Origin: Elusimicrobiota bacterium
GTDB lineage: Bacteria > Elusimicrobiota > Elusimicrobia > UBA1565 > UBA9628
Direction of reading: 5' to 3'
DNA length: 64,000 bases
NCBI GenBank assembly: GCA_027452025.1
Contig: DAIDHI010000080.1
Span: 58-64,057 of the forward strand
Shown: one piece after another, positions 4,959 through 51,751 of the stretch
Numbering within the stretch: the first letter of the stretch is position 1
Layout: each line of letters opens with the position of its first letter
Program-made: the position numbers and the translations under genes
Notes under the pieces: model-generated
Seen by the model: only the letters and a program-made list of their open reading frames with translations
Told to the model about the DNA's origin: nothing
Databases searched by the model: none

Positions 4959-5666
4959 ATGAAAAATACGATCCTCGCCATCAGCCTGCTGTCGGTCTGC
5001 GCGCCGCTGCGCGCGCAGTTGCTCGTGCTCGATCCGGGCCACGGCGGCCACGATCTCGGGGCCGTCGTGCGCGGGCGCTACGAGAAGCGGCTCACGCTGG
5101 AGATCGCCCAAAAGCTCAAGGAAAAGCTAGAAAAAGAGGGGGCGTCGGTGGCGCTGACCCGCGATCACGACGTCTATCTGCCGCTCGACGAGCGCGTGAA
5201 TCTGGGCGAGCGCGGCGCCGCCTTCATCTCGCTGCATCTCAACGACGTGCGCTCGCGGCGCGAGCGCGGCATCACGGTCTACGCCTTCGGCCGCGACCGG
5301 CGCCGCATCCCGCGCCGCCGGCACCGATACGCCATCCCGCCGCTTCCCGCTCCGCCCATGCAGCAGCGGCGCCAGAGCGCGCGCCTGGCCGCCGCGTTCG
5401 TCGGCACGCTGCGCAGCCGAGGCTTCCGCGTCGACCCTCCGGCTCGCGCGGGCTTTTACGTGCTCAAGAATCCGGACGTTCCGAGCGTCCTCATCGAACT
5501 GGGCTACCTGAGCAACCCGCGGGAAGCGGCGCGCTTGGAAAGCCCCGCGTATCAGGACCGCCTGGCCGACGCCCTTGCCGCGAGCCTCAGGCGTTATTTC
5601 GGACCATTTGCCGGCTCCACGCTGCAGGCGAAAGCCTCCGCCCTCAGCGCCGGCCGCTTGCGTTGA
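4959..5666 (+). CDS. N-acetylmuramoyl-L-alanine amidase (Amidase_3 family)
   Basis: LVLDPGHGGHDLGAV, ...FISLHLN..., VLIELGYLSNPREA are classic Amidase_3 Zn-ligand and fold motifs. A signal peptide begins at MKNTILAISLLSVCA (ATG 4959). Confidence 0.85.
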   Translation: MKNTILAISLLSVCAPLRAQLLVLDPGHGGHDLGAVVRGRYEKRLTLEIAQKLKEKLEKEGASVALTRDHDVYLPLDERVNLGERGAAFISLHLNDVRSRRERGITVYAFGRDRRRIPRRRHRYAIPPLPAPPMQQRRQSARLAAAFVGTLRSRGFRVDPPARAGFYVLKNPDVPSVLIELGYLSNPREAARLESPAYQDRLADALAASLRRYFGPFAGSTLQAKASALSAGRLR

Positions 5667-6074: not shown

Positions 6075-6631
6075 TGCTGCTGGCGTTCTACAAGCCCTAC
6101 GGCGTGGTGTCTCAGTTCACTCCTCTGGCGGGACATCCCACCCTCGCCGGCTTCGGCCTGCCCAAGGGCGTCTACCCCTGCGGCCGCCTCGACCGCGACA
6201 GCGAAGGCCTGCTGCTGCTCACCGACGACGGGGCCCTCCAGCATCGGCTCAGCGACCCGAGATTCGGCCAAGCGCGGACCTACTGGGCCCAGGTGGAGGG
6301 GGCGGCGCAGGAAGCGGCGCTCGCCAGGCTGCGGCGAGGGCCCCGGCTTTCCGATGGCCCGACTAGGCCGTGCGAGGCCCGGAGGCTTTCGGCGGAGCCC
6401 GATCTTGCGCCGCGCGATCCGCCGATCCGCTACAGAAGGACGGTCGCCACTTCGTGGCTCGAGATCACGCTGACCGAAGGCCGCAACCGCCAGGTGCGGC
6501 GTATGACGGCCGCCGTCGGCCTGCCTACCCTGCGCCTGGTACGCGTGCGCCACGGCGGCGCCGGGCTCGAAGGGCTCGCGCCCGGAGAGTGGCGGCCGGT
6601 CCGTCCAGACACTGTCACGCGTTCGCGCTAG
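6074..6631 (+). CDS. RsuA/RluE-family pseudouridine synthase
   Basis: [17 protein letters not shown] catalytic-Asp motif and the ...[10 protein letters not shown] motif are present. The protein is short and lacks an S4 domain, as RluE does. GTG start. Confidence 0.8.
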
Positions 6632-8846: not shown

Positions 8847-11561
8847 CTATGCGCCTTTGCTCACCTTCTCGAGAGTCAGCCAGCGGTTGGTGCCCGCGAA
8901 CTTTTGGTGCATGCGCGTGCGCGGCTCGCCGTGGGGTGCTCCGAGCTCGGCCACCTGCAAGTCGGCCAGCGCCTCCAGGCCCTTCTTCTTGAACTCGCGC
9001 AGCGAGGCCTCGAGAGCCATGCCCACTGTGCGGAAGGCCAGCAGCGTCGAGAATTGCAGGACGTAGCCGAGACCGCCGAGCTCCTCGTTGGCGATGAGCC
9101 GGCCCTCTTGCTTGGCCTTGCCCCAATGCAGCGAGGGGGAGAGATTGAAGCCCAGCATCTGATCCGGGAAATACTTGTGCACGCCTTGGGCGAAGGCCCT
9201 CGGCCCGTCGATGCCGGTGTCGTTGAACTCGGCCCAAATGACGTCCACGCCCAGAGACGCCGCCTCCAGGGCCCGCGCGATCGCGTGGTCGACGCCCGGC
9301 CCGCGCCCCCCCGGCACGGCGCCGTCCACGGCGTCGGTGCGCGCGATCACGACGAGGTCCGTCTCCGTCGCCTGGGCGGCGGCCTTGACGGCGATGAGCT
9401 TCTCGATCCACTTGTGGGTAGGTACGAGCACCTTGTCTCGCTTGCTGCCGTGATGGGCGATGATGTGGCCGCACGTGCGCTCGGCCGGATCCTGGTCCTC
9501 GAGATGCACGCCGGCGGCGCCCGCGCGGATGAGCTCGCGCGCCAGCGTGAATGTCTGCGTCGGCCCGCCGAAGCCGGCCTCGATGTCGGCGAAGATCGGA
9601 GGCGCGGCCAGGACCTCGCCGTCGCGGTCGTAGAAGTGTCGGTCGCGCGTGCCCTCGATGCCGCGCAGGAGCTCCTGCACCAGCGAGACCATGGAATGTG
9701 AAGGATATATCCCGATGTCTGGATACATGTTGTGGGCGACGGCCAGCTGCCAGCCGCTGGCGTAGATCGCCTCGAAGCCGAGCTCGGTCAGCAGCGACGC
9801 CGTCACGGCGTCGTAGGCCCCCGCCGTGTGGAGGTAGGACTCCGCCGGATCGCTCCGCCGCCGGGCGAAGCGCGCCTTGAGCAGCGCCCTCAGCTTCTGC
9901 GCCGGATGCGTTTTTTCAAGCGGCGCATACATCTTCGCGAACTGCGCCGCGGGATAGGTCCACTTCTTGAAACCTTCGCTGGGAACGGCCGCCGTCTCGC
10001 TGATCATATCTTGGCTCCATTGGCTGGCGCGCTCATAGCGTCGCTCCAGCGCCTCTCTTTGTGCGCGCTCGCCGTTCTGGCGCTGCGCGCGCAGATCCTT
10101 GAAAATCTTCTTCAGCTCCTCGTCGAACCAGCCCGCGACGAGCTCGCGCGTGACGCGCTCTCCCTCCGCGGCCGCGACGGCGTGCCTGATGCGCTGCGCG
10201 ACCATCAGCCGGTAAATCCGGTCCGTCGCCAGATCCTCCATGAAGTTGCCGATGAGGTCGCCGTGCCGGTCGTAGCCTTTGATCATCCGAGCGCCGAGCC
10301 CCGAGAGCACGCCGAATCGATATTCGATCATGGTCCGGATCGCGTCCTTGGTCCCGGCGACGGTGATCGCCCCGATCCCGGTCGGCGCGGGAGTCAGATC
10401 GGGCTTGACCTCGGCGCGCGCGGGAAACGAATGGAGCTGGTTGGGGGCGGGGAATTGGGAAATGGCGGCCTCGTGTTGATCGGGATGCCCGGTCCAAGCC
10501 CCGTCGAAGCCGCAATCCGCTTCATTCTTCTTGTCCGCGGCCAGCCGCTCCATGGCTCGTCCGTTGACCGCGGCATCGCCGCGGTCGGGAAAGAGCGCCG
10601 TCATGCCCCCGATCGCCAGCGCCCCTCGCCGATGGCAGATCTCGACGAGCCGGCGGCGAACATTCTGAAAAAAAGGGATGTCGTGCGGAATCGTGTTACG
10701 GTCCGGCAGGATCCAGCCCGGGTCGGCGAGCTTGAACTCGAGGAGGCTGGCCATATAGTCCCAGCGGCCCAAATTGAGGCCGATCGCGTGTCGGCGAGCC
10801 TCGTAGAGGATCTCCTCGATCTGATAAGCTGCGGGCAGCGACTCGATAAGATACATGATTTTCGTCGTTCCCTCCGGCACGCCGATCGCCGCCTCCATCG
10901 CGGCCAGCGCGTCCGAAAACCACCGCGCCTCGGCGGCCGATTCCACTTTCGGGATGTAGAATCCGAGCTTAGCCTGCAGCCCCGGCGAGTGGACCGCCGC
11001 TTTACGCAGGTCCGCCGTCGGGAAAAAGACCGCGACCATGTCGAAGAGCGAGGCCGACACAATCTCTCCCGGGACGGCTCGCGTTTCGTCGAGATGCAGG
11101 CCGCGGGGGCGGTAATACATAGCCTGAGCGCTCGGCTTGACGCGGGCGGTCTTGCCCGTTTGGGGGTCGGCATAGGCGAGCGTGCCGCGAATGGCCAAGA
11201 CGGTGTTTTCTTGGGCCGTCCGCACGTGCTCCCACTCGGGCGAGATGGAGTCCTCTCCATCCGGCATGCATCCCGGATCGTCGGCGTTGCACATGCCGAC
11301 CAGGATCTTCGCGTTGTCGGCCGGACCGGTGATCTGATTGCGCTGGTCCTTGGCCCAGTCCGGCAGCCGGATCTTCCAGGCCCCGCTCGTCGCCTCCGAT
11401 TCCGGGAGGTAGTCGGGCATCCGTCCTGCGCGCGCGGACGCCAGGGCCGCGCGGCGCTGCTGCAACAGGGCCTGGCGCCTAGGCTCGAAGCGCCTGTGGA
11501 GAGGCAGCAGGAACCCGCGCAAGTCATCCGGAACAATCGCGACGCTTTGTGTCGTTTTCAT
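8847..11561 (-). CDS. bifunctional malate synthase (N-terminal, A-type) / isocitrate lyase (C-terminal) fusion
   Basis: aa 1-~520 align by eye to malate synthase A (RNQITGP, FYIPKVESAAEARWF, GLNLGRWDYMAS, GGMTALFP, DGAWTGHP). aa ~560-904 align to isocitrate lyase (ASGWQLA, ADIEAGFGG, VHLEDQ, TCGH catalytic Cys-His, VVIARTDA, GFNLSPS). It is a single uninterrupted 904-codon frame. Confidence 0.9.
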   Translation of the reverse strand: MKTTQSVAIVPDDLRGFLLPLHRRFEPRRQALLQQRRAALASARAGRMPDYLPESEATSGAWKIRLPDWAKDQRNQITGPADNAKILVGMCNADDPGCMPDGEDSISPEWEHVRTAQENTVLAIRGTLAYADPQTGKTARVKPSAQAMYYRPRGLHLDETRAVPGEIVSASLFDMVAVFFPTADLRKAAVHSPGLQAKLGFYIPKVESAAEARWFSDALAAMEAAIGVPEGTTKIMYLIESLPAAYQIEEILYEARRHAIGLNLGRWDYMASLLEFKLADPGWILPDRNTIPHDIPFFQNVRRRLVEICHRRGALAIGGMTALFPDRGDAAVNGRAMERLAADKKNEADCGFDGAWTGHPDQHEAAISQFPAPNQLHSFPARAEVKPDLTPAPTGIGAITVAGTKDAIRTMIEYRFGVLSGLGARMIKGYDRHGDLIGNFMEDLATDRIYRLMVAQRIRHAVAAAEGERVTRELVAGWFDEELKKIFKDLRAQRQNGERAQREALERRYERASQWSQDMISETAAVPSEGFKKWTYPAAQFAKMYAPLEKTHPAQKLRALLKARFARRRSDPAESYLHTAGAYDAVTASLLTELGFEAIYASGWQLAVAHNMYPDIGIYPSHSMVSLVQELLRGIEGTRDRHFYDRDGEVLAAPPIFADIEAGFGGPTQTFTLARELIRAGAAGVHLEDQDPAERTCGHIIAHHGSKRDKVLVPTHKWIEKLIAVKAAAQATETDLVVIARTDAVDGAVPGGRGPGVDHAIARALEAASLGVDVIWAEFNDTGIDGPRAFAQGVHKYFPDQMLGFNLSPSLHWGKAKQEGRLIANEELGGLGYVLQFSTLLAFRTVGMALEASLREFKKKGLEALADLQVAELGAPHGEPRTRMHQKFAGTNRWLTLEKVSKGA

Positions 11562-11637: not shown

Positions 11638-12396
11638 CTAGATGGCGATGCGAAGGAGGTCGCGCGCCAGGCCGACCCGACGCCGACCGCGCACGAGGGC
11701 GCGCAGCTCGGCCTCCGAGCGTTCCGACAGGTGGGTCAGCAGCCCGCGCCGGCACGCGGACGCGCCAAGAGTCGCCAAGGCCAAGGGAGGCGTCAAATGC
11801 CCGGCCGCGGGCGAAAGAGAGGACAGGGTGCACTCGAGAAGGAAGAGATCGGCCTCGGCCGCGAAATCGGCCAATCCCGGATCGTAGCCGGCGTCTCCGG
11901 AATAAACAAAGCTCTTCCTCTTATACGAGAGCCGGTATGCCAGGGCCGGCGTCGGATGCGGGACCGAGCGCGCCGCGACGCGCCAGTCCGCGCCTCGCGC
12001 GTCGCGGCCGGCAGAGAGTTCCTCGACCTCAAGGCGGTAGCCCCGGGGCGACAGCCAGGGGCGATAGGCGCCGCGCAAATCGTGGAGGAATCGCGCGAAA
12101 TCCCGCGGGCCCCAGAGCCGCAGCCGCCGGCTCCTCGGGCGGGCCTCGTAGCGCAGGAAGAAGAGGAGCGCCGCCAAGTCCCCTACGTGGTCGGGGTGGC
12201 GATGCGAGATGAAGACGTCGGTCACGCGCGCCGGGTCCAGGCCCGCGCGCGCCATCTGCCGGACGGCGCCGAACCCTAGGTCGAAGAGCATGATCCGGCC
12301 GTCCAGCACGACGGCGTTGGCCGCGGCGTTGCGTACCGCAGCTTTCGGCCGCCGCGGCGCGAACGCGCTGCCTGATCCCAAGATGACCAATTCCAT
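11638..12396 (-). CDS. MBL-fold metallo-hydrolase (RNase Z/ElaC-like)
   Basis: MELVILGSGSA... and the HRHPDHVGD metal-binding motif. 252 aa. Confidence 0.75.
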   Translation of the reverse strand: MELVILGSGSAFAPRRPKAAVRNAAANAVVLDGRIMLFDLGFGAVRQMARAGLDPARVTDVFISHRHPDHVGDLAALLFFLRYEARPRSRRLRLWGPRDFARFLHDLRGAYRPWLSPRGYRLEVEELSAGRDARGADWRVAARSVPHPTPALAYRLSYKRKSFVYSGDAGYDPGLADFAAEADLFLLECTLSSLSPAAGHLTPPLALATLGASACRRGLLTHLSERSEAELRALVRGRRRVGLARDLLRIAI

Positions 12397-12417
12397 GGGA
12401 CAATGTTAGAATAACAA

Positions 12418-12476
12418 GGTGTCAGACTTTCACTTTTCACTTACCTTTAATAAGTGGAAAGTGAAAGTCTGACACC
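12418..12476. repeat. AT-rich 26-bp-stem palindromic hairpin element (GGTGTCAG...CTGACACC termini)
   Basis: Left arm GGTGTCAGACTTTCACTTTTCACTTA (12418-12443), 7-nt loop CCTTTAA, right arm TAAGTGGAAAGTGAAAGTCTGACACC (12451-12476). 25 Watson-Crick pairs plus one T.G. It lies between a divergent gene pair, 42 nt upstream of the acnA ATG. Confidence 0.85.
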
Positions 12477-12518: not shown

Positions 12519-15269
<2,751 letters not shown>

Positions 15270-29653: not shown

Positions 29654-30622
29654 TCACGGGGCCCCTGTCAACGCCAGGACGCCTCGCAGAGCGGGAGAGG
29701 CGAAATAAGGGTGCGCCGCGGCGCGCGAAAGCCACTCGCGCGCCCGCGGCCCGTCGCCGCTTTTGAGGCAGAGACCGGCCATCGCCGCGTAGAACTGCGC
29801 CGGCGCGGGATGTCCCTTGACGGCCTCGGCGTAGCGCCTGATGGCCAGGTCGAAGCGTCCGGCGGCGGCGTGCCGGGCCGCCAGCCACTCCGCGCGGTCC
29901 CAAGGGTGGCTGTCGGGCAGCGGAAAGCGCGCGAGACGAGAGCCCCATTTCTCGAAGAACTTCAAGCGCGCCGCCCCGGAGTCCGGATTGCGCCGCAGAT
30001 GGTCGTGGATCACGGCGCTGCCGCCGTGATAGAGGACGGCGAGCCCCTTCAAGCGAGCCCTCAGGCAATAGTCGAGGTCCTCGAACTGGCAAGGGAAGAA
30101 CCTCTCGTCGAACGGACCGACGCGCGAAAACAGCGAGCGGCGCATGAGCCAGCAGGCGCCGATCACGCTTTCGCAGCGGCGGGTGTAGTCGCGCTGGCCC
30201 AGGTCGCGCTCTTCCTCCCCGGCGTTGCGGCTCCACGGAGAGCCCATCTCCGCGGCGTTGATCGTGCCGTCCGGCCGCGCCACCTTGCAGCCGACGATGA
30301 CGGCCTTACGGTCGCCCTCGGCGGCCCGGAGCATCCCTTCCAGCCAGCCAGCCGTGGCGCGGGCATCGTCATCGAGCAGGACCACCCAATCAGAGCGGAG
30401 TCGCCCGCGGACGGCGTTGACGGCGCCGGAAAATCCCAGGTTGCGGCGGTGGCGAACCGCCTCGACGTCGGCGCCTCGCAGCCACGACGCCGTTCCGTCG
30501 CGGGAGGCGTTGTCGACGATGATCAGCCGGTGCGGGACGGCCCGCGTGTGGCGTCGGACCGATTGCACGCACGACGCCAGAGCCCGTCTGGCGTCGTGCG
30601 TGACCACGACGATGTCGATCAT
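29654..30622 (-). CDS. glycosyltransferase family 2 with C-terminal helical-repeat tail
   Basis: MIDIVVVTHDA...LIIVDNASRDGT...VVLLDDDA (DxD) GT-A pattern. GAGGAG SD overlaps the upstream stop. Confidence 0.8.
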   Translation of the reverse strand: MIDIVVVTHDARRALASCVQSVRRHTRAVPHRLIIVDNASRDGTASWLRGADVEAVRHRRNLGFSGAVNAVRGRLRSDWVVLLDDDARATAGWLEGMLRAAEGDRKAVIVGCKVARPDGTINAAEMGSPWSRNAGEEERDLGQRDYTRRCESVIGACWLMRRSLFSRVGPFDERFFPCQFEDLDYCLRARLKGLAVLYHGGSAVIHDHLRRNPDSGAARLKFFEKWGSRLARFPLPDSHPWDRAEWLAARHAAAGRFDLAIRRYAEAVKGHPAPAQFYAAMAGLCLKSGDGPRAREWLSRAAAHPYFASPALRGVLALTGAP

Positions 30623-36389: not shown

Positions 36390-36426
36390 GCGGCCTCTCC
36401 GCTCGCGCGGAGAGGCCGCTCATTTT
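36390..36426. terminator. GC-rich hairpin between convergent transcripts (likely bidirectional terminator)
   Basis: 13-bp stem GCGGCCTCTCCGC / GCGGAGAGGCCGC with loop TCGC, followed on the + strand by TCATTTTA. It sits between the stop of the 36012-36371 gene and the 3' end of rnpB. Confidence 0.5.
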
Positions 36427-36797
36427 AGGGAGAGCCTGTACCCCGAATTCTGTTCCCCCCTCGCGGAGGGCGAGGATCATTTCTCTGATGCGGCTACCGA
36501 GGAGCCGCCCCGCCTCTCGGCGGGACCGCGCGGGCCGCGCGAGCTCCCACACTGCCTTGCTCCGGACGGGGTTTGCCGTGACGCCGTCCCTCGCGGGACG
36601 GCCGGTGGGCTCTTGCCCCACCTTTTCACCCTTGCACTCCGCACGGTCTGCGGAGTGCGGTTGTTCTCTGTGGCACTTTCCGTCGGCGAAGCGTATGGTC
36701 TTCGCCTCCCCGCCTTTCGACGGGCGTCCTGCCCTGCGGAGTTCGGAAGTTCCTCCCCCCGCGACGCGTCGCGGAAGGCGATCCCCCGGCTCTCCCT
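36427..36797 (-). ncRNA. rnpB: RNase P RNA (bacterial type A-like)
   Basis: The reverse complement contains GGAAAGTGCCACAGAGAACAACCGC, GCAAGGGTGAAAAGGTGGGGCAAGAGCCCACC, GGCAAACCCCGTCCGGAGCAAGG and ACAGAATTCGGGGTACAGG. P1 pairing is AGGGAGAGCC...GGCTCTCCCT. The ends are approximate. Confidence 0.85.
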
Positions 36798-39938: not shown

Positions 39939-41699
39939 ATGTCCCGACGCCGCCGCGCCCCGCTCCTGCTGGCCGCCGCGCTGCTGGGGGCGGGGCCGGC
40001 GTCGGCGAGGACGTCGAGCAGGGCTGCCGCGGTCGAGCAGCTGTGCCCCCGCATCCGCTTCGTAGGCCCGGCGATCGACCTCGACGACGTCGAGAAGCGC
40101 CTGGTCTGCGGAGATCCGAGCCGCCCGGCCTGGAGCCGCATCCCGCTCAACCAGGCCGAGCAGTTCATGCGCGCGTTCCTGCAGAGGCGCGGGCGCAATT
40201 TCCCGACCTTCAAGGCCGTCGACGACACCCTGGAGGTGCGCATCGGGACGCCGACCTACGTGACGAAGATGACGACCACGGGACTGGAGGGCATTTTGGA
40301 CATGAGCAAGCGCCGCCACATCGTCGGCGAGCTCATGACCCCGGCGGAGCTCGACAAGTTCACCAGCGCCGTCAAGTTCGAGCTCCAGAGCCGCGGCTAC
40401 GCCTGCCCCAAGATCAGCGTGACCGGCGACGCCCGCACGGGCGAGGTGCACGCCTCAGTCGATCCCGGGCCGCGCTACACGATGAGCGACATCGCCACGC
40501 CGCCGCCTCCGGGCATCGACCCGGACATCTTCCGCCGCTATTGGGCCTTCGAGCCCAGCCAGCCATTCGACACGCGCCTGCTGTCTTTGACCTCCGACCG
40601 CATCCAGACCGACGCGCTCTTCCTGAGCGCCTATTACGAGGTCGCGTGCACGACCACGGGGCTGCACATCACCCAAAGGGTCGTCGAGGCTCCTCCGCGC
40701 GAGGTGCGCATCGGCGTGGGGGCCGACACCGAAGGCTATCTGCGCGGCCGCGCCGAGTGGAAGCATTCCCGGATAGGCTACCGCGCCAGCTCCATCGACG
40801 TCACGGCCTTCGACTCCTTCCTCGAACAGTCGGTCGACGGCAACATGAAGTACTACCTGCGGCCTTCCGACCGCATCTACCTGATGCCGCGGGTCTTCCT
40901 GCGGCGCGAGAGCTACACTCCCTACGAAGCCGCCCACTCCGAGGCCGCGATCCTGCCCAGCTGGACTTGGGACGGCACCGACCTCCACGTCGAGACGCGC
41001 GGCGGCCCGGGCATCGAATATTTCAACACCTTGCGCGGCGAGGGCCCGATCGACGACAAGTTCCTCAGCTTCGACACTCAGGCCAAGGTGATGTCGCACC
41101 TCTACGAATATTACGAGCGCGACCCGCGCGAAGGCTGGACGGCCTCGTTCCAATCCAAGTCCCGCGTCTCCGGAGCTTATTCCGACCTGACGGCGCACAT
41201 GATGCGCGTCGACGAGGAGGATCTCTGGAACCTCGGGCGCTACAGCCCGCCGCTGGCCGTCCTGGCGATCCGAGGCTTTGCCGGCACCACCTGGCTCTCC
41301 GACCCCTCTCTGGCCTTCACCAAGCTCCCGCCGAGCATGCGCTTCTTCATGGGCGGCGACGCTAATTTCCGCGGAGCCCCGCTCATGGAGCTGCCCAACG
41401 ACGCCGGCGGGTTTTTGACGGCCGTCTATCAAGGCGTCGAGCTGCGCGCGGGCGACCTCCTTCCCTACGGGCTGCAGCCGCTCGTCTTCATGGACGGCGC
41501 GATGGGAGGCGAGAGCGCCTTCCACCTCGACCCCGCCGTCTACTGGGCTCCGGGAGCGGGCCTGCGCTGGGCGCTGCCCTTCGGCTCCATGCGCGCCACG
41601 ATCGCGCGGGGCCTGACCTGGGCGCGAGGCCAGCAGACCCTGCCGACCTTGAATCTGCCTCGCTGGCAGTTCTTCTTCACGTTCGGACAGGAATTCTGA
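39939..41699 (+). CDS. tamA: Omp85/BamA-family outer-membrane protein (TamA-like)
   Basis: Signal peptide, POTRA-like N-terminal repeats, a C-terminal beta-barrel ending ...WQFFFTFGQEF, and a position immediately upstream of a TamB-like gene. Confidence 0.7.
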   Translation: MSRRRRAPLLLAAALLGAGPASARTSSRAAAVEQLCPRIRFVGPAIDLDDVEKRLVCGDPSRPAWSRIPLNQAEQFMRAFLQRRGRNFPTFKAVDDTLEVRIGTPTYVTKMTTTGLEGILDMSKRRHIVGELMTPAELDKFTSAVKFELQSRGYACPKISVTGDARTGEVHASVDPGPRYTMSDIATPPPPGIDPDIFRRYWAFEPSQPFDTRLLSLTSDRIQTDALFLSAYYEVACTTTGLHITQRVVEAPPREVRIGVGADTEGYLRGRAEWKHSRIGYRASSIDVTAFDSFLEQSVDGNMKYYLRPSDRIYLMPRVFLRRESYTPYEAAHSEAAILPSWTWDGTDLHVETRGGPGIEYFNTLRGEGPIDDKFLSFDTQAKVMSHLYEYYERDPREGWTASFQSKSRVSGAYSDLTAHMMRVDEEDLWNLGRYSPPLAVLAIRGFAGTTWLSDPSLAFTKLPPSMRFFMGGDANFRGAPLMELPNDAGGFLTAVYQGVELRAGDLLPYGLQPLVFMDGAMGGESAFHLDPAVYWAPGAGLRWALPFGSMRATIARGLTWARGQQTLPTLNLPRWQFFFTFGQEF

Positions 41700-44074
41700 T
41701 GCGTACCCTGCGGCGCGCCGTCAAACGGCTCCTCCAGGCCCTCGGCCTGCTCCTCACGCTGACGACCGCGCTCCTGACGGCCTTCATCGCCCGTCCCGAA
41801 TGGTTCCTGACCTCGAGTCGCGTCGAGAGGCTGGCGCGCCGGTTCGGCAAGGCCTATCAGCCCTCATGGACGAGCTTCCATTTCGAGATCGTGTCCCGAA
41901 GCTTCCGCGACAAGACCGTCTCGGTCCGCGTGAAAGACCTGCGCTTCGACGATCCCGCCGCCGGCGCTTCCGGACTGGCGTCCACGGCGGCCGTGACCGT
42001 CAGCTTCCGCCTCGGCCTGCGTCCCCTCGTCCGGCTGACCAGGCTGGACTCGGCCGAGCTCGACGCGCGCTGGCTGCGGCTCGACGAGCGCGGGCCGCGC
42101 CCGGCCAAGCCGGCCAGGAAGACGGTGGAGCGCTACGTCTCGCTGCCGAACCTCCTGCCCGGGCCGGCGCGCTCGATGACATTCGGGGTCGTCGACCTGC
42201 GCGCCCGGCGATTCGTGATCCTGCGCTCGAGCGGCTCTCTGTCCGGCTCGGCCTGGGCGCGCTATCCGTGGCGCAGCCGGCCGCAGCTCGACGCCGCCTC
42301 CGACGTGATCTCGCGCTCGGCCGCGGGCGCCTCGCGCTGGCGCGCCCGCGCGGCCGTGACCTCCGACGTGTTCCAGAAAGGCGGCCTGACCTATCTCCAG
42401 GCGCGGGCGGACTTGGCGGGCCCGGGCTCGACGGCCAAGCTGAGCGCGCGGGTGTTCCAATCCGGGCCCCGGCAGACCCGGCTTCGCGCCGTCGCCGGCG
42501 GCCGCATCGGCGGGCACGCTTTCACCGCCGACCTAGCCGGCTCGCAGACGCCCGCGGCCTACGCCCTGCGCGGCTCGCTGGCCGTACTCGCTCCGACGCC
42601 GCGGCTGCGCTCCGTCTCCTTGGACGACTGCCGCCTCGACGTTCCCCTGCGCAAGGGCTCCCTTTCGCCGCGCGCGCTGACGCTCGATTGCCAGCTCGCG
42701 CTGGCGCCCGCGCCGTTCGGCCCGTCGCCCAACGCCGTTCCCAAGACCATCGCGGGGCGCGTCGCCTTCGACGCCGACGTCAAGAGCTACACGCTGGAGG
42801 GCAAGCCCGACGCCTTCGACGCCCGCCTAGACGCTGCGCTTGGGCCGATGCGCGGCTGGTACCGGTTCGACGCGCGCCTCCAGCTCCAGGCCTCCGGACG
42901 GCTCGCCGCGCTGCCCGCGAGCCTCAAAGCCCGGCACCGCTTGAGCGCCCGCCTGCGCGTGGCGCGCTTCCGCGACCTGGTCGAGTTCCTCAAAGGCACG
43001 AAATACGCCATTCCAGCCCCGCTCAACGTCCTGGAAGGCTCGATCGGCGCCTCGTTTTACGGCTCGGGCGACGCGCGCAGCCCCTCCCAGACGTTCGATT
43101 ATCGCGCGGGAACGGACCTCTCGGGCGCCGGCGAGCGCCTGAAGGTCTCCGTCGCCGGCTCGCTGCTCGCCAAGCGGCTCTTCGAGCCCTCGCGCTCCTT
43201 TTTTGACCGCACCGACGTCGACTTGGAGGAGGTGTCCGTCGAGCTGCCCTATCTGCGCCTGGGGCCGCTGCCGAAGGTGTTCGTCGACAGCCGGATCCAG
43301 ACCGGAGCCGCTTCGCGGCGCGCGGTCGACCCCGTGCCCCCCCCGCCCGCCGAGGCCGTGGCGGGCTCCACCGCGTCCGTGGTCGACTACGACGCGCGCG
43401 TGTTCACCTCCTCGCCCGCCGTGGTCCGGTCCAATCTCGCCAAGACGCCGGTCCCGGTCTCTCTGCGCCTGCGCGCCAGGCCGCAAGCCGTGAGCGGCAC
43501 GATCGCGATCGGGCGCTTCGAAGCCGAGCTGTTCCGGCAGCTGGCCGTCATCGACCACGTGATCCTGACCGAGCACCCGGGCGCCTCGGCGCTCGGCCTC
43601 GACGGCCTCGTCACCTATAAGCGTCCGGAAGCGACGATCTACATCCATCTGCTCGGCAGCACCTCCAAGCCGCAGGTCGCCCTGTCCAGCGACCCTCCGA
43701 TGACGCGAGACGAGATCCTGGCCCTGCTGCTCTACGGCCAGCCGCCGGACGCGCTCGACGAAGATCAGCGCAGCAACGTCGGAAACGCCTCCAACGGCAT
43801 GGCCGCGGGAGCCTTCGGCCTGGCCTCGCTCTATCTCTTCGCCTCCACGCCCGTGGAATACGTGGGCTACGATCCGGCGACGCAGACCTACGCCGTGCGG
43901 CTGAAGCTTCCGGGCGGGGTGCACATGCAGCTGGGCTCCTCGGCGCTGCAGGAATCGCGCACGCTCACGCTGCGCAAGCGGCTGGCGCCCCATTGGCAGA
44001 TCGAGACGCAAGCCGCGACCAGCCAGCAAGGCAACGCCATCACCACGTTCCTCGAGTGGTTCGAACGCTACTAG
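41699..44074 (+). CDS. tamB: translocation and assembly module TamB-like protein (DUF490 C-terminus)
   Basis: N-terminal membrane anchor, a long beta-rich body, and a C-terminal ...SDPPMTRDEILALLLYGQP... block typical of DUF490/TamB. The start overlaps the tamA-like stop. Confidence 0.7.
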   Translation: MRTLRRAVKRLLQALGLLLTLTTALLTAFIARPEWFLTSSRVERLARRFGKAYQPSWTSFHFEIVSRSFRDKTVSVRVKDLRFDDPAAGASGLASTAAVTVSFRLGLRPLVRLTRLDSAELDARWLRLDERGPRPAKPARKTVERYVSLPNLLPGPARSMTFGVVDLRARRFVILRSSGSLSGSAWARYPWRSRPQLDAASDVISRSAAGASRWRARAAVTSDVFQKGGLTYLQARADLAGPGSTAKLSARVFQSGPRQTRLRAVAGGRIGGHAFTADLAGSQTPAAYALRGSLAVLAPTPRLRSVSLDDCRLDVPLRKGSLSPRALTLDCQLALAPAPFGPSPNAVPKTIAGRVAFDADVKSYTLEGKPDAFDARLDAALGPMRGWYRFDARLQLQASGRLAALPASLKARHRLSARLRVARFRDLVEFLKGTKYAIPAPLNVLEGSIGASFYGSGDARSPSQTFDYRAGTDLSGAGERLKVSVAGSLLAKRLFEPSRSFFDRTDVDLEEVSVELPYLRLGPLPKVFVDSRIQTGAASRRAVDPVPPPPAEAVAGSTASVVDYDARVFTSSPAVVRSNLAKTPVPVSLRLRARPQAVSGTIAIGRFEAELFRQLAVIDHVILTEHPGASALGLDGLVTYKRPEATIYIHLLGSTSKPQVALSSDPPMTRDEILALLLYGQPPDALDEDQRSNVGNASNGMAAGAFGLASLYLFASTPVEYVGYDPATQTYAVRLKLPGGVHMQLGSSALQESRTLTLRKRLAPHWQIETQAATSQQGNAITTFLEWFERY

Positions 44075-44086
44075 GCGGAGCTTGAT

Positions 44087-44155
44087 GGTGTCAGGCCTTG
44101 AATTGTTTGACTTGTTTGCCGAGCAAACAAGTCAAACAATTCAAGGCCTGACACC
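44087..44155. repeat. AT-rich perfect 33-bp-stem palindromic hairpin element (GGTGTCAG...CTGACACC termini)
   Basis: GGTGTCAGGCCTTGAATTGTTTGACTTGTTTGC (44087-44119), loop CGA, then the exact reverse complement (44123-44155). It fills the 89-nt gap between the convergent tamB-like and DUF2267 genes. There is no U-tract. Confidence 0.9.
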
Positions 44156-44163
44156 AAGCCCAG

Positions 44164-44679
44164 TCAGTAGCCGCCGGGAACGGCGCCGTAGGGACCCGGC
44201 ACGGACGGAGCCGGCCGCTCGGGCGGGATCGCCGGCTCCGCTTCCTCGCGGGAAAGCTCCGACCAGAATTGCCGGATCTCGCGGGGCAAGATGAACCGGA
44301 TCGCCCGTACTTCGCCCGGGGATAAATGCTCCTCGACGACCCGGAACACCGCCCGCGCCGCGAGCGCGCCGTCGAGACCCGGCTGGCCGCGCAGGGCGTC
44401 GCCGATCGCGCGCAAGAACCGGTCCTTGGTGTAGCGCCGGGGCTTGCGCCGCGGCTTCCAGCCGTCGAAAAAGACGCCTCGCACGAGCAGCGGCATCTGG
44501 GACGAGAACTTGGCCGTCTCGTCGACGGGCATGCAGTCGCGCAGCGCATGCAGCACGGCCCTCAGCGCCGAATAGGCGCGGGGCCGGTCCGTCGAGTGGA
44601 TCTCCGACTCCACCCCCTTGATCCAGAGGTTCGTCTTTTGGAGCGACGAATCGAAGACGTCGATGTTCCTCACCGCCAT
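44164..44679 (-). CDS. DUF2267 domain protein
   Basis: ...RPRAYSALRAVLHALRDCMPVDETAKFSSQMPLLVRGVFFDGWKP... matches the DUF2267 pattern. Confidence 0.72.
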   Translation of the reverse strand: MAVRNIDVFDSSLQKTNLWIKGVESEIHSTDRPRAYSALRAVLHALRDCMPVDETAKFSSQMPLLVRGVFFDGWKPRRKPRRYTKDRFLRAIGDALRGQPGLDGALAARAVFRVVEEHLSPGEVRAIRFILPREIRQFWSELSREEAEPAIPPERPAPSVPGPYGAVPGGY

Positions 44680-51676: not shown

Positions 51677-51751
51677 TGGTGGGCAGTATAGGATTCGAAC
51701 CTATGACCCCTGTCGTGTGAGGACAGTGCTCTACCGCTGAGCTAACTGCCC
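51677..51751 (-). tRNA. tRNA-Val (anticodon CAC), CCA-encoded
   Basis: Reverse complement: GGGCAGT TA GCTC AGCGGTA GAGC A CTGTC CTCACAC GACAG GGGTC ATAGG TTCGAAT CCTAT ACTGCCC A CCA. This gives a full cloverleaf with a 7-bp acceptor stem and a TTCGAAT T-loop. Confidence 0.9.

Follow-up and report, generated by a model that had tools for sequence, protein, structure and literature searches.

A perfect hairpin between convergent Elusimicrobiota genes is probably a miniature, gene-less derivative of a TIRtron

We analysed a stretch of 64,000 nucleotides from an Elusimicrobiota bacterium (hereafter the window), in which a long perfect hairpin at positions 44087–44155 lies between two convergent genes. 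We put the probability at roughly 78% that this hairpin derives from a TIRtron as a miniature form without genes, built from two head-to-head copies of a terminal inverted repeat (TIR) of the TIRYT type. The family itself is already described, if little studied; new here are a T-for-G variant of its end motif and the host phylum, Elusimicrobiota.

In the searched passages of three papers, the family is characterised as follows. TIRYTs are RAYT-like genes with long terminal inverted repeats, and the resulting units are called TIRtrons; their TIRs carry the motif GGGGWSAS and form moderately abundant families of single copies, dimers and clusters (Di Nocera, De Gregorio & Rocco 2013, PMC3733652). 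Most TIRYTs fall in TnpA-REP subclass 2.1, whose C-terminal domains are Bac_DnaA_C, HTH_23 or HTH_28, and GGGG[AT][CG]A[CG] is said to be unlike a DnaA box (Quentin et al. 2018, PMC6006769). The searched text of this 2018 survey does not mention Elusimicrobiota. Subclass 2.1 equals RAYT Group 1, which is the most widely distributed group and has some members on plasmids (Bertels et al. 2017, PMC5581495).

The hairpin and its sister element

As the original prediction had read it, the hairpin has two arms of 33 nt, each the exact reverse complement of the other, on either side of a 3-nt loop (Table 1). The inverted-repeat search of the window returned a stem of 34 nt at 100% complementarity rather than 33, because T44086 and A44156 pair too. 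No inverted repeat in the 64 kb is longer, and the runner-up is a second hairpin at 12418–12476, the sister element. The RNA fold of the 44087 hairpin reaches −79.7 kcal/mol (z = −13.7 against shuffled sequence) and its single-stranded DNA fold −40.6 kcal/mol (z = −16.3), which was equalled by none of 200 shuffles. All pairs in the stem are Watson-Crick, with no G-U pair. Lone arms of the window hairpins do not fold (44087 arm, −0.8 kcal/mol and z = +0.4; other arm, z = +0.1). The arm thus behaves as a TIR and not as a self-folding REP.

The expected setting was also found: the hairpin stands between the stop codons of a TamB-like and a DUF2267 gene, and with 46% G+C (39% in the sister element) it is A/T-rich relative to the window at about 68%. 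Past the stem there is no T/A tract on either strand (plus, AAGCCCAG; minus, ATCAAGCT), and the matches of a terminator scan use partial internal stems only, in line with the earlier statement that this is no textbook intrinsic terminator. A promoter scan gave no promoter-like site near this copy. Rfam returned no family at the gathering threshold, only generic microRNA-precursor matches below it, and a literature search with the hairpin sequence found only unrelated primer matches. From the sequence alone, we dismissed an integron attC site (no RYYYAAC/GTTRRRY), a protelomerase site (such sites have no loop), a retron msd (no reverse transcriptase nearby) and CRISPR repeats.

Table 1. Coordinates of the hairpins, their parts and other features of the window.
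Feature	Position	Strand	Details
Left arm, one TIR copy	44087–44119	+	GGTGTCAGGCCTTGAATTGTTTGACTTGTTTGC
Loop CGA	44120–44122	+	Read from the sequence and the RNA fold
Right arm, second TIR copy, head to head	44123–44155	+	Exact reverse complement of the left arm
13-nt terminal module	44087–44099	+	GGTGTCAGGCCTT; complement at 44143–44155
Subfamily-specific core	44100–44117	+	9-nt word doubled in tandem, GAATTGTTT GACTTGTTT; complement at 44125–44142
TamB-like gene	41699–44074	+	PF04357, E = 5e-9; stop 12 nt upstream of the hairpin; P0001 100% identical
DUF2267 gene, convergent	44164–44679	−	PF10025, E = 5.9e-29; stop 8 nt from the hairpin
Sister element	12418–12476	+	GGTGTCAGACTTT, then CACTTTT CACTTA, 7-nt loop, reverse complement with one mismatch
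Predicted promoter	12383–12412	+	ATGACC, 18-nt spacer, TAGAAT, upstream TG; consensus match and conservation
MBL-fold gene	11638–12396	−	
Aconitase gene (acnA)	12519–15269	+	
Class A bacterial RNase P RNA	36423–36797	−	
tRNA gene	51680–51751	−	
G+C-rich perfect 16-bp hairpin	30566–30602		CACGCACGACGCCAGA, 5-nt loop; unrelated to the TIR family

The sister element is the second-longest inverted repeat of the window, with arms of 26 nt, a length of 59 nt and a single-stranded DNA fold of z = −10.7. It sits between the divergent MBL-fold and aconitase genes, a position unlike a terminator's, and no T tract follows it. The predicted −10 box TAGAAT ends 5 nt ahead of the element and is conserved in relatives. 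All named top matches of the aconitase belong to Elusimicrobia or Elusimicrobiota (67–78% identity). Three related Elusimicrobia keep the divergent MBL/acnA pair; in a fourth, another gene lies upstream of acnA. In the alignment, the sister element is missing from the orthologous acnA-upstream spacer of all four (L245, L246, L247 and L248), each of which has the extended −10 box AAATGnTAnAAT and then 3–43 nt to the acnA start, with no hairpin. With the element taken out, the spacing in the window is 47 nt, versus 43 nt in the closest relative. Across 77 kb from the four relatives we found neither the TIR motif nor a stem of at least 16 bp. The hairpin-free spacer in four relatives thus indicates that the 12418 copy is an insertion, located at about the predicted start of acnA transcription.

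The original prediction had set a mobile family against unrelated hairpins occupying the same site in related genomes. At the 12418 site, the comparison of orthologous intergenic regions gave a presence/absence difference, the four relatives having no hairpin at all. For the 44087 site the search yielded no usable ortholog: the sole TamB relative is 38% identical and has another downstream gene. As a separate observation, five Elusimicrobia have kept AAATGnTAnAAT ahead of acnA, namely the window (12400–12412), L245 (~9950–9965), L246 (~9982–9995), L247 (~5320–5335) and L248 (~9990–10000), and in those that have the divergent MBL-fold gene, only 13–16 nt separate the box from the gene start.

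A shared end, its distribution and its transposase genes

Both window hairpins share a 13-nt end, GGTGTCAGRCYTT, in two versions that differ by two transitions. The identity of the outer 8 bp, noted previously, is therefore part of a longer zone, and the cores inside it differ, as had been described. The tip GGTGTCAG has four matches in the window, solely at the four arm tips, versus 1.09 expected. There are no extra half-sites in the window beyond chance, and its two dimers have different cores. The tip fits the published GGGGWSAS at seven of eight positions, position 3 being T (GGTG, not GGGG). This motif is a signature of many, not all, TIRtron ends and no strict requirement; within the family, position 3 is G or T. 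The tip of an Elusimicrobia copy in L001, GGGGTCAG, is an exact fit. This contig belongs to the Elusimicrobiota assembly with the 38% identical TamB relative, and its copy combines GGGGTCAGGCCTT and AACTTAATTAACTTATTT in a perfect 31-bp stem. Direct repeats or target-site duplications were found neither at the two window copies nor at about 30 other copies, as is expected of HUH elements.

Genomes and metagenomes from over ten phyla, five Elusimicrobia assemblies included, contain hundreds of hairpins closed by the 13-nt end. A scan of 185,579 species genomes with GTCAGRCYTT-N20-50-AARGYCTGAC gave at least 119 loci. Among the matches listed, about 86 hits are Planctomycetota doublets of GTAG-tagged REPs, GTAGGTCAGGCTTTCCAGCCTGAC (class A), and about 40 are built like the window elements (class B): G[GT]GGTCAGRCYTT leads into a T-rich core that varies between elements, and a loop and the reverse complement follow. 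The hosts of class B are Elusimicrobia (L001, L036, L040, L068, L106), Desulfobacterota, Firmicutes, Chlorobi, Nitrospinota, Rokubacteria, Acidobacteria, beta- and gammaproteobacteria, Dehalococcoidia, Actinomycetota and Isosphaeraceae. As in the window, GGTG...CACC is found in three of the five copies from Elusimicrobia, and L068 has GGTG on one arm. In metagenomes, the strict pattern GGTGTCAGRCYTT...AARGYCTGACACC occurs at no fewer than 120 loci with dozens of core subfamilies; chance would give well below one hit of the strict GGTG...CACC pattern per 10^12 bases.

Of 154 elements, 146 have distinct flank contexts. This, together with the recurrence of one end on many cores, agrees with the suggestion made earlier that such palindromes, with constant ends and changing cores, form a family that is mobile or recognised by a protein. 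The family element is symmetric and is found in either orientation. Flank logos gave no conserved target sequence, and flank positions carry little information; a likeness of the left window flank (TTGAT) to the ISDra2 target proved not to be general across copies. Carriage by phages is unsupported, as very few copies were found in viral contigs. Searching all collected loci for empty sites with joined flanks gave no unoccupied copy, only shared single flanks and tandem tip duplications.

Two side observations concern the scan. The 25-nt arms GGGGTCAGACCTTGACATTTGACAT are identical in L048 5603–5657 (Desulfoscipio, Firmicutes) and L050 1365–1426 (Nitrospinota), which suggests a recent transfer of one subfamily or mis-binning. 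The GTAG-tagged REP of class A is abundant in Planctomycetota (L003, L006–L010 and about 80 other loci), usually as inverted doublets, and at L057 6525–7330 a fragment of a RAYT-like gene lies between tandem and inverted copies. It has GGTCAGGCTTT in common with the window family, an overlap partly imposed by the search pattern.

The mobile-family reading is further borne out by the genes next to the shared end. In a Desulfotignum genome (L004), a 303-aa ORF between two class B hairpins encodes a protein with Pfam domains Y1_Tnp (E = 8e-16) and Bac_DnaA_C. Its best NCBIfam match is the model for REP-associated tyrosine transposases, below the cut-off, and its family comprises 2308 proteins at E ≤ 1e-10, several of which are labelled 'REP element-mobilizing transposase RayT'. 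The hairpins beside this gene open with GGGGTCAGGCCTT, which equals GGTGTCAGGCCTT of the window at 12 of 13 positions. GGTGTCAGGCCTT likewise matches the ends in L242, L241 and L244; the ends around the Y1_Tnp genes of L004, L242, L241, L244 and L243, all genomes other than that of the window, are GGGGTCAGGCCTT, GGGTCAGGCCTT or GGGGTCAGGCTT. In the isolate Desulfotignum phosphitoxidans (L244), the gene is bracketed by GGGGTCAGGCTT hairpin dimers with 26- and 28-bp stems and one or no mismatch, and about nine more copies or half-copies lie within 21 kb, a density of at least 10 copies in that span. The TIRYT of this species is P0096, and the hairpin starts with GGGGTCAGGCTTGGCTTATTGGCTTATTG.

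In a 5.77-Mb genome (L243), GGGGTCAGGCTTTCCTTGTTGTCG arrays lie upstream of a homologous gene and inverted copies downstream. On plasmids of Sporomusa termitida (L241) and Legionella adelaidensis (L242), the homologous genes stand between inverted repeats GGGGTCAGGCCT and AGGGTCAGGCCTTGCCTTTTG, respectively. The repeats of these three loci fit [GA]GGGTCAGGC[CT]T, as inverted repeats or arrays. A Planctomycetaceae assembly (L104) has several ACGTCAGGCTTTGGTTTTTGGTTTTTGG arms in inverted orientation around its homologous gene; it carries ACGTCAGGCTTT, of which only the inner ten bases, GTCAGGCTTT, are common with the family. The 11–13-nt end thus surrounds Y1 genes in five genomes of three phyla, and the sixth, from Planctomycetota, has the inner ten bases only. 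The transposases of these loci are 27–50% identical to the L004 protein, with the outer 11–13 nt kept in five of the six loci. Among the proteins scanned with Pfam, those of Desulfotignum and the 5.77-Mb genome also have the DnaA-like helix-turn-helix. Distant homologues on Rhodospirillum, Pseudomonas and Skermanella plasmids retain GGGG[TA]CAG only.

The sole gene found repeatedly between such repeats is the Y1/HUH gene. An all-against-all ORF comparison gave no recurrent neighbour gene, nor a recurrent DDE gene, as is expected of dispersed repeats. Neither the window nor the five Elusimicrobia loci yielded a TIRYT or any other Y1 gene in searches by tblastn and by profile (E up to 10), and among the loci examined no intact transposase gene is bounded by exact GGTGTCAG-type repeats. 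The nearest cases come from L182 and L216. At L182 2424–2729 (minus strand), a Y1/HUH remnant in which NHFH and GHIWQGRF survive is truncated precisely where a GGTGTCAG hairpin begins; either a transposase gene was hit by an insertion or a TIRtron has decayed here. The Y1 gene of L216 is preceded by GGTGACAG repeats; directly upstream of it, at 6395–6470, are GAAAAGGTGACAGCCACCAAATTGGTGG repeats with a small hairpin in each, a GGTGWCAG variant of the published motif.

We also compared the arms of 36 subfamily representatives. A word of 5–9 nt, mostly 7–8, is tandemly doubled in the arm, mostly straight after the 13-mer. The mean best direct-repeat score is 4.06 versus 3.08 in shuffles, and none of 200 shuffle sets reached the observed value. 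Examples are GGCTTATT GGCTTATT in L244, GACATTT GACAT in L048 and the doubled word of the sister element (Table 1). Searched passages of the TIRtron, TnpA-REP and RAYT literature do not mention this two-part arm. In a downstream TIRtron end on a Rhodospirillum rubrum plasmid (L258, ~1300–1360), GTTTTACTC occurs three times in tandem beside AAAAGGGGTCAGACCCC, so the tandem-word feature is also present in a more distant transposase branch.

The best-sampled subfamily, GGTGTCAGACTTTGTTYTTGGTT, comes from peat metagenomes and is of the Isosphaeraceae type (47 contexts, e.g. L130, L135, L166, L126 and L169). Here, the repeated unit extends past the hairpin by 6–8 nt on each side, and these extensions come in matched pairs such as GCTCCGC...CCTCCGCC. 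The mobile unit of this subfamily is thus 6–8 nt longer per side than the palindrome, and asymmetric. The flank pairs observed were gctccgc...cctccgcc, gagggat...tggcac or acgcac, and agggac...acgcac or gcgcac. Many family members also have tandem duplications beside them, in which each unit joins 7–12 nt of outer flank to the initial 12 nt of the tip. They occur at L227 2452–2530, L182 2420–2530, L243 9701–9930 and 11184–11260, and in L130, L162 and L179; in one example, CGAGTGAT+GGTGTCAGACTT is present four times. We know of no described mechanism for such duplications, which could be footprints of repeated cleavage and rejoining.

Known systems and rival explanations

The window elements resemble TIRtron TIRs in their non-self-folding arms, their arrangement as long-hairpin dimers, their intergenic position and their lack of target duplications, and differ from the published ones by the T at position 3. 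Based on this match, we assign both window hairpins to the TIR dimers of that family. They also resemble REPINs (Bertels & Rainey 2011, PMC3116915), which are non-autonomous hairpins of two inverted, transposase-recognised copies dispersed between genes, and whose partner, a Y1/HUH gene present in one copy, likewise has these repeats on either side (RAYT Groups 2 and 3). However, a classical REP is a short palindrome with a 5′ GTAG or GTGG, whereas the window arm is non-folding with the tag GGKG, and a TIRYT-type partner carries an extra DNA-binding domain. We therefore do not regard the window hairpins as classical REPs or REPINs, since the lone arm does not fold and has no GTAG tag.

Hairpin recognition by an enzyme of the Y1/HUH superfamily without target duplication is also a property of IS200/IS605 and its gene-less derivatives, the palindrome-associated transposable elements. 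Their ends are two different subterminal hairpins without TIRs, whereas the window ends are inverted copies of one sequence. The outer non-palindromic extensions of the GGTGTCAGACTTTGTTYTTGGTT subfamily resemble the guide and cleavage sites of IS608, which adjoin its hairpin. Correia/NEMIS and other bacterial MITEs are similar in being short intergenic inverted-repeat elements that fold in mRNA and alter the expression of neighbours. But Correia/NEMIS elements are moved by DDE transposases with target duplications (TA in Correia elements), and none was found at the window copies.

The last difference also bears on the view that the hairpin is a MITE moved by a DDE transposase of the IS630/Tc1 or Tn3 family. 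Such a MITE would explain an element made almost wholly of terminal inverted repeats, the combination of conserved tips and a variable inner TIR is typical of DDE families, and the ends of Tn3-family elements likewise begin with GGGG. We nevertheless consider this view very unlikely, given the missing target-site duplications at the window copies and some 30 others, the nearly information-free flanks and the recurrence of the Y1/HUH gene, with no recurrent DDE neighbour, between such repeats. It is improbable, though less so, that the host evolved the hairpin in place as a bidirectional terminator or mRNA-stabilising structure, with its likeness to the 12418 element being convergent or a shared regulatory design. 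Convergent genes on either side, a distance of 8–12 nt to each stop codon and the very stable RNA fold would suit such a role, which REP-type repeats are known to gain (PMC3733652). Family members are also found in convergent more often than in divergent settings (17 versus 9), in a crude ORF-based count that is unreliable in high-G+C contigs and called 37 elements 'inside an ORF'. A terminator is difficult to reconcile with the lack of a U tract on either strand, an A+T-rich stem in a 68% G+C genome, a sister copy between divergent genes just past a −10 box, and a 13-nt end common to transposase-flanking repeats of other phyla. The exclusive Watson-Crick pairing fits a constraint on DNA.

For a structured small RNA or double-stranded RNA substrate, such as an RNase III target with the stem base as recognition site, we see about as little chance as for a DDE-moved MITE. 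The long perfect duplex, the conserved stem base and the sub-threshold matches to generic microRNA-precursor hairpins would be compatible with it, but no Rfam family reached the threshold, the element is symmetric on both strands and found in either orientation, it is linked to a DNA transposase gene, and there is no promoter-like site near the 44087 copy. Nearly all of a 64.5-kb contig from an NCBI metagenome assembly is taken up by the window, and chimeric reads can make perfect palindromes, so a palindromic junction created during contig building also had to be weighed. Both flanking genes are intact with normal ends, and the same family occurs in isolate genomes, finished plasmids and hundreds of independent assemblies, which leaves an assembly artefact with almost no probability.

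Proposed mechanism and significance

We propose a TIRtron-derived hairpin whose arm consists of a 13-nt module conserved across phyla, GGKGTCAGRCYTT, followed by a subfamily word present twice in tandem. The partner enzyme would be a Y1/HUH TIRYT (RAYT Group 1, TnpA-REP subclass 2.1) with a C-terminal DnaA-like helix-turn-helix; in the genome of the window, such a partner is putative. By analogy with IS200/IS605 and REP-associated transposases, the element would fold into a hairpin when its DNA is single-stranded, as in the lagging-strand template. A TIRYT whose gene lies at another place in the genome would then bind the foot of the stem, cut, and rejoin the DNA without a target-site duplication, so that the element would be moved or copied into intergenic DNA. 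By the same analogy, the catalytic Y1 domain might recognise the 13-mer, and the helix-turn-helix might recognise the doubled word.

After insertion, both convergent mRNAs would have the hairpin at their 3′ ends. By analogy with REP biology, the structure may block 3′ exonucleases, hinder read-through or disturb translation termination, the latter because the hairpin starts 8–12 nt past each stop codon. REPs placed at most 15 nt from a stop codon reportedly have an effect (Liang et al. 2015). Such transcript-level effects would be secondary and not the origin of the sequence. It is by analogy that we infer mobility, present activity and a terminator or mRNA effect for the window hairpins. Since their cores differ, the two copies may be old relics of two lineages; with 77 kb of four relatives free of copies, this lineage may carry few old relics only.

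More tentatively, the observations can be joined into one reading that we regard as possible but rather unlikely as a whole. RAYT Group 1 was previously reported without REP-like partners; here, Group 1/TIRYT enzymes would keep REPIN-like hairpin populations in more than ten phyla. The end of these elements would be modular: the 13-nt module, read by the catalytic domain, would stay near-constant even at about 30% enzyme identity, and the doubled 5–9-nt word would co-evolve with the DnaA-like helix-turn-helix and set the match between element and enzyme. The duplications of flank and 12-nt tip would be footprints of abortive cleavage and rejoining.

The TIRtron reading would explain two A+T-rich perfect hairpins of an uncultured Elusimicrobiota genome as mobile-element debris and not as bespoke regulatory signals, and it guards against their annotation as terminators or small RNAs. 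It would extend the known range of a little-studied family to Elusimicrobiota and offers a hypothesis on DNA selection by Y1 transposases to which a DnaA-like domain has been added. With one copy 8–12 nt from two stop codons and the other at about the predicted acnA transcript start, the window provides natural test cases for effects on neighbour expression.

A minor observation concerns the flanks of the 44087 hairpin. Positions 44066–44083 and 44156–44172 pair mutually (GCTACT with AGTAGC and GCTT with AAGC), with both stop codons included, and the TamB-like and DUF2267 genes both terminate in ...GCTAC-stop. This pairing could be due to chance, or it could be the remnant of an older hairpin that was hit by the insertion.
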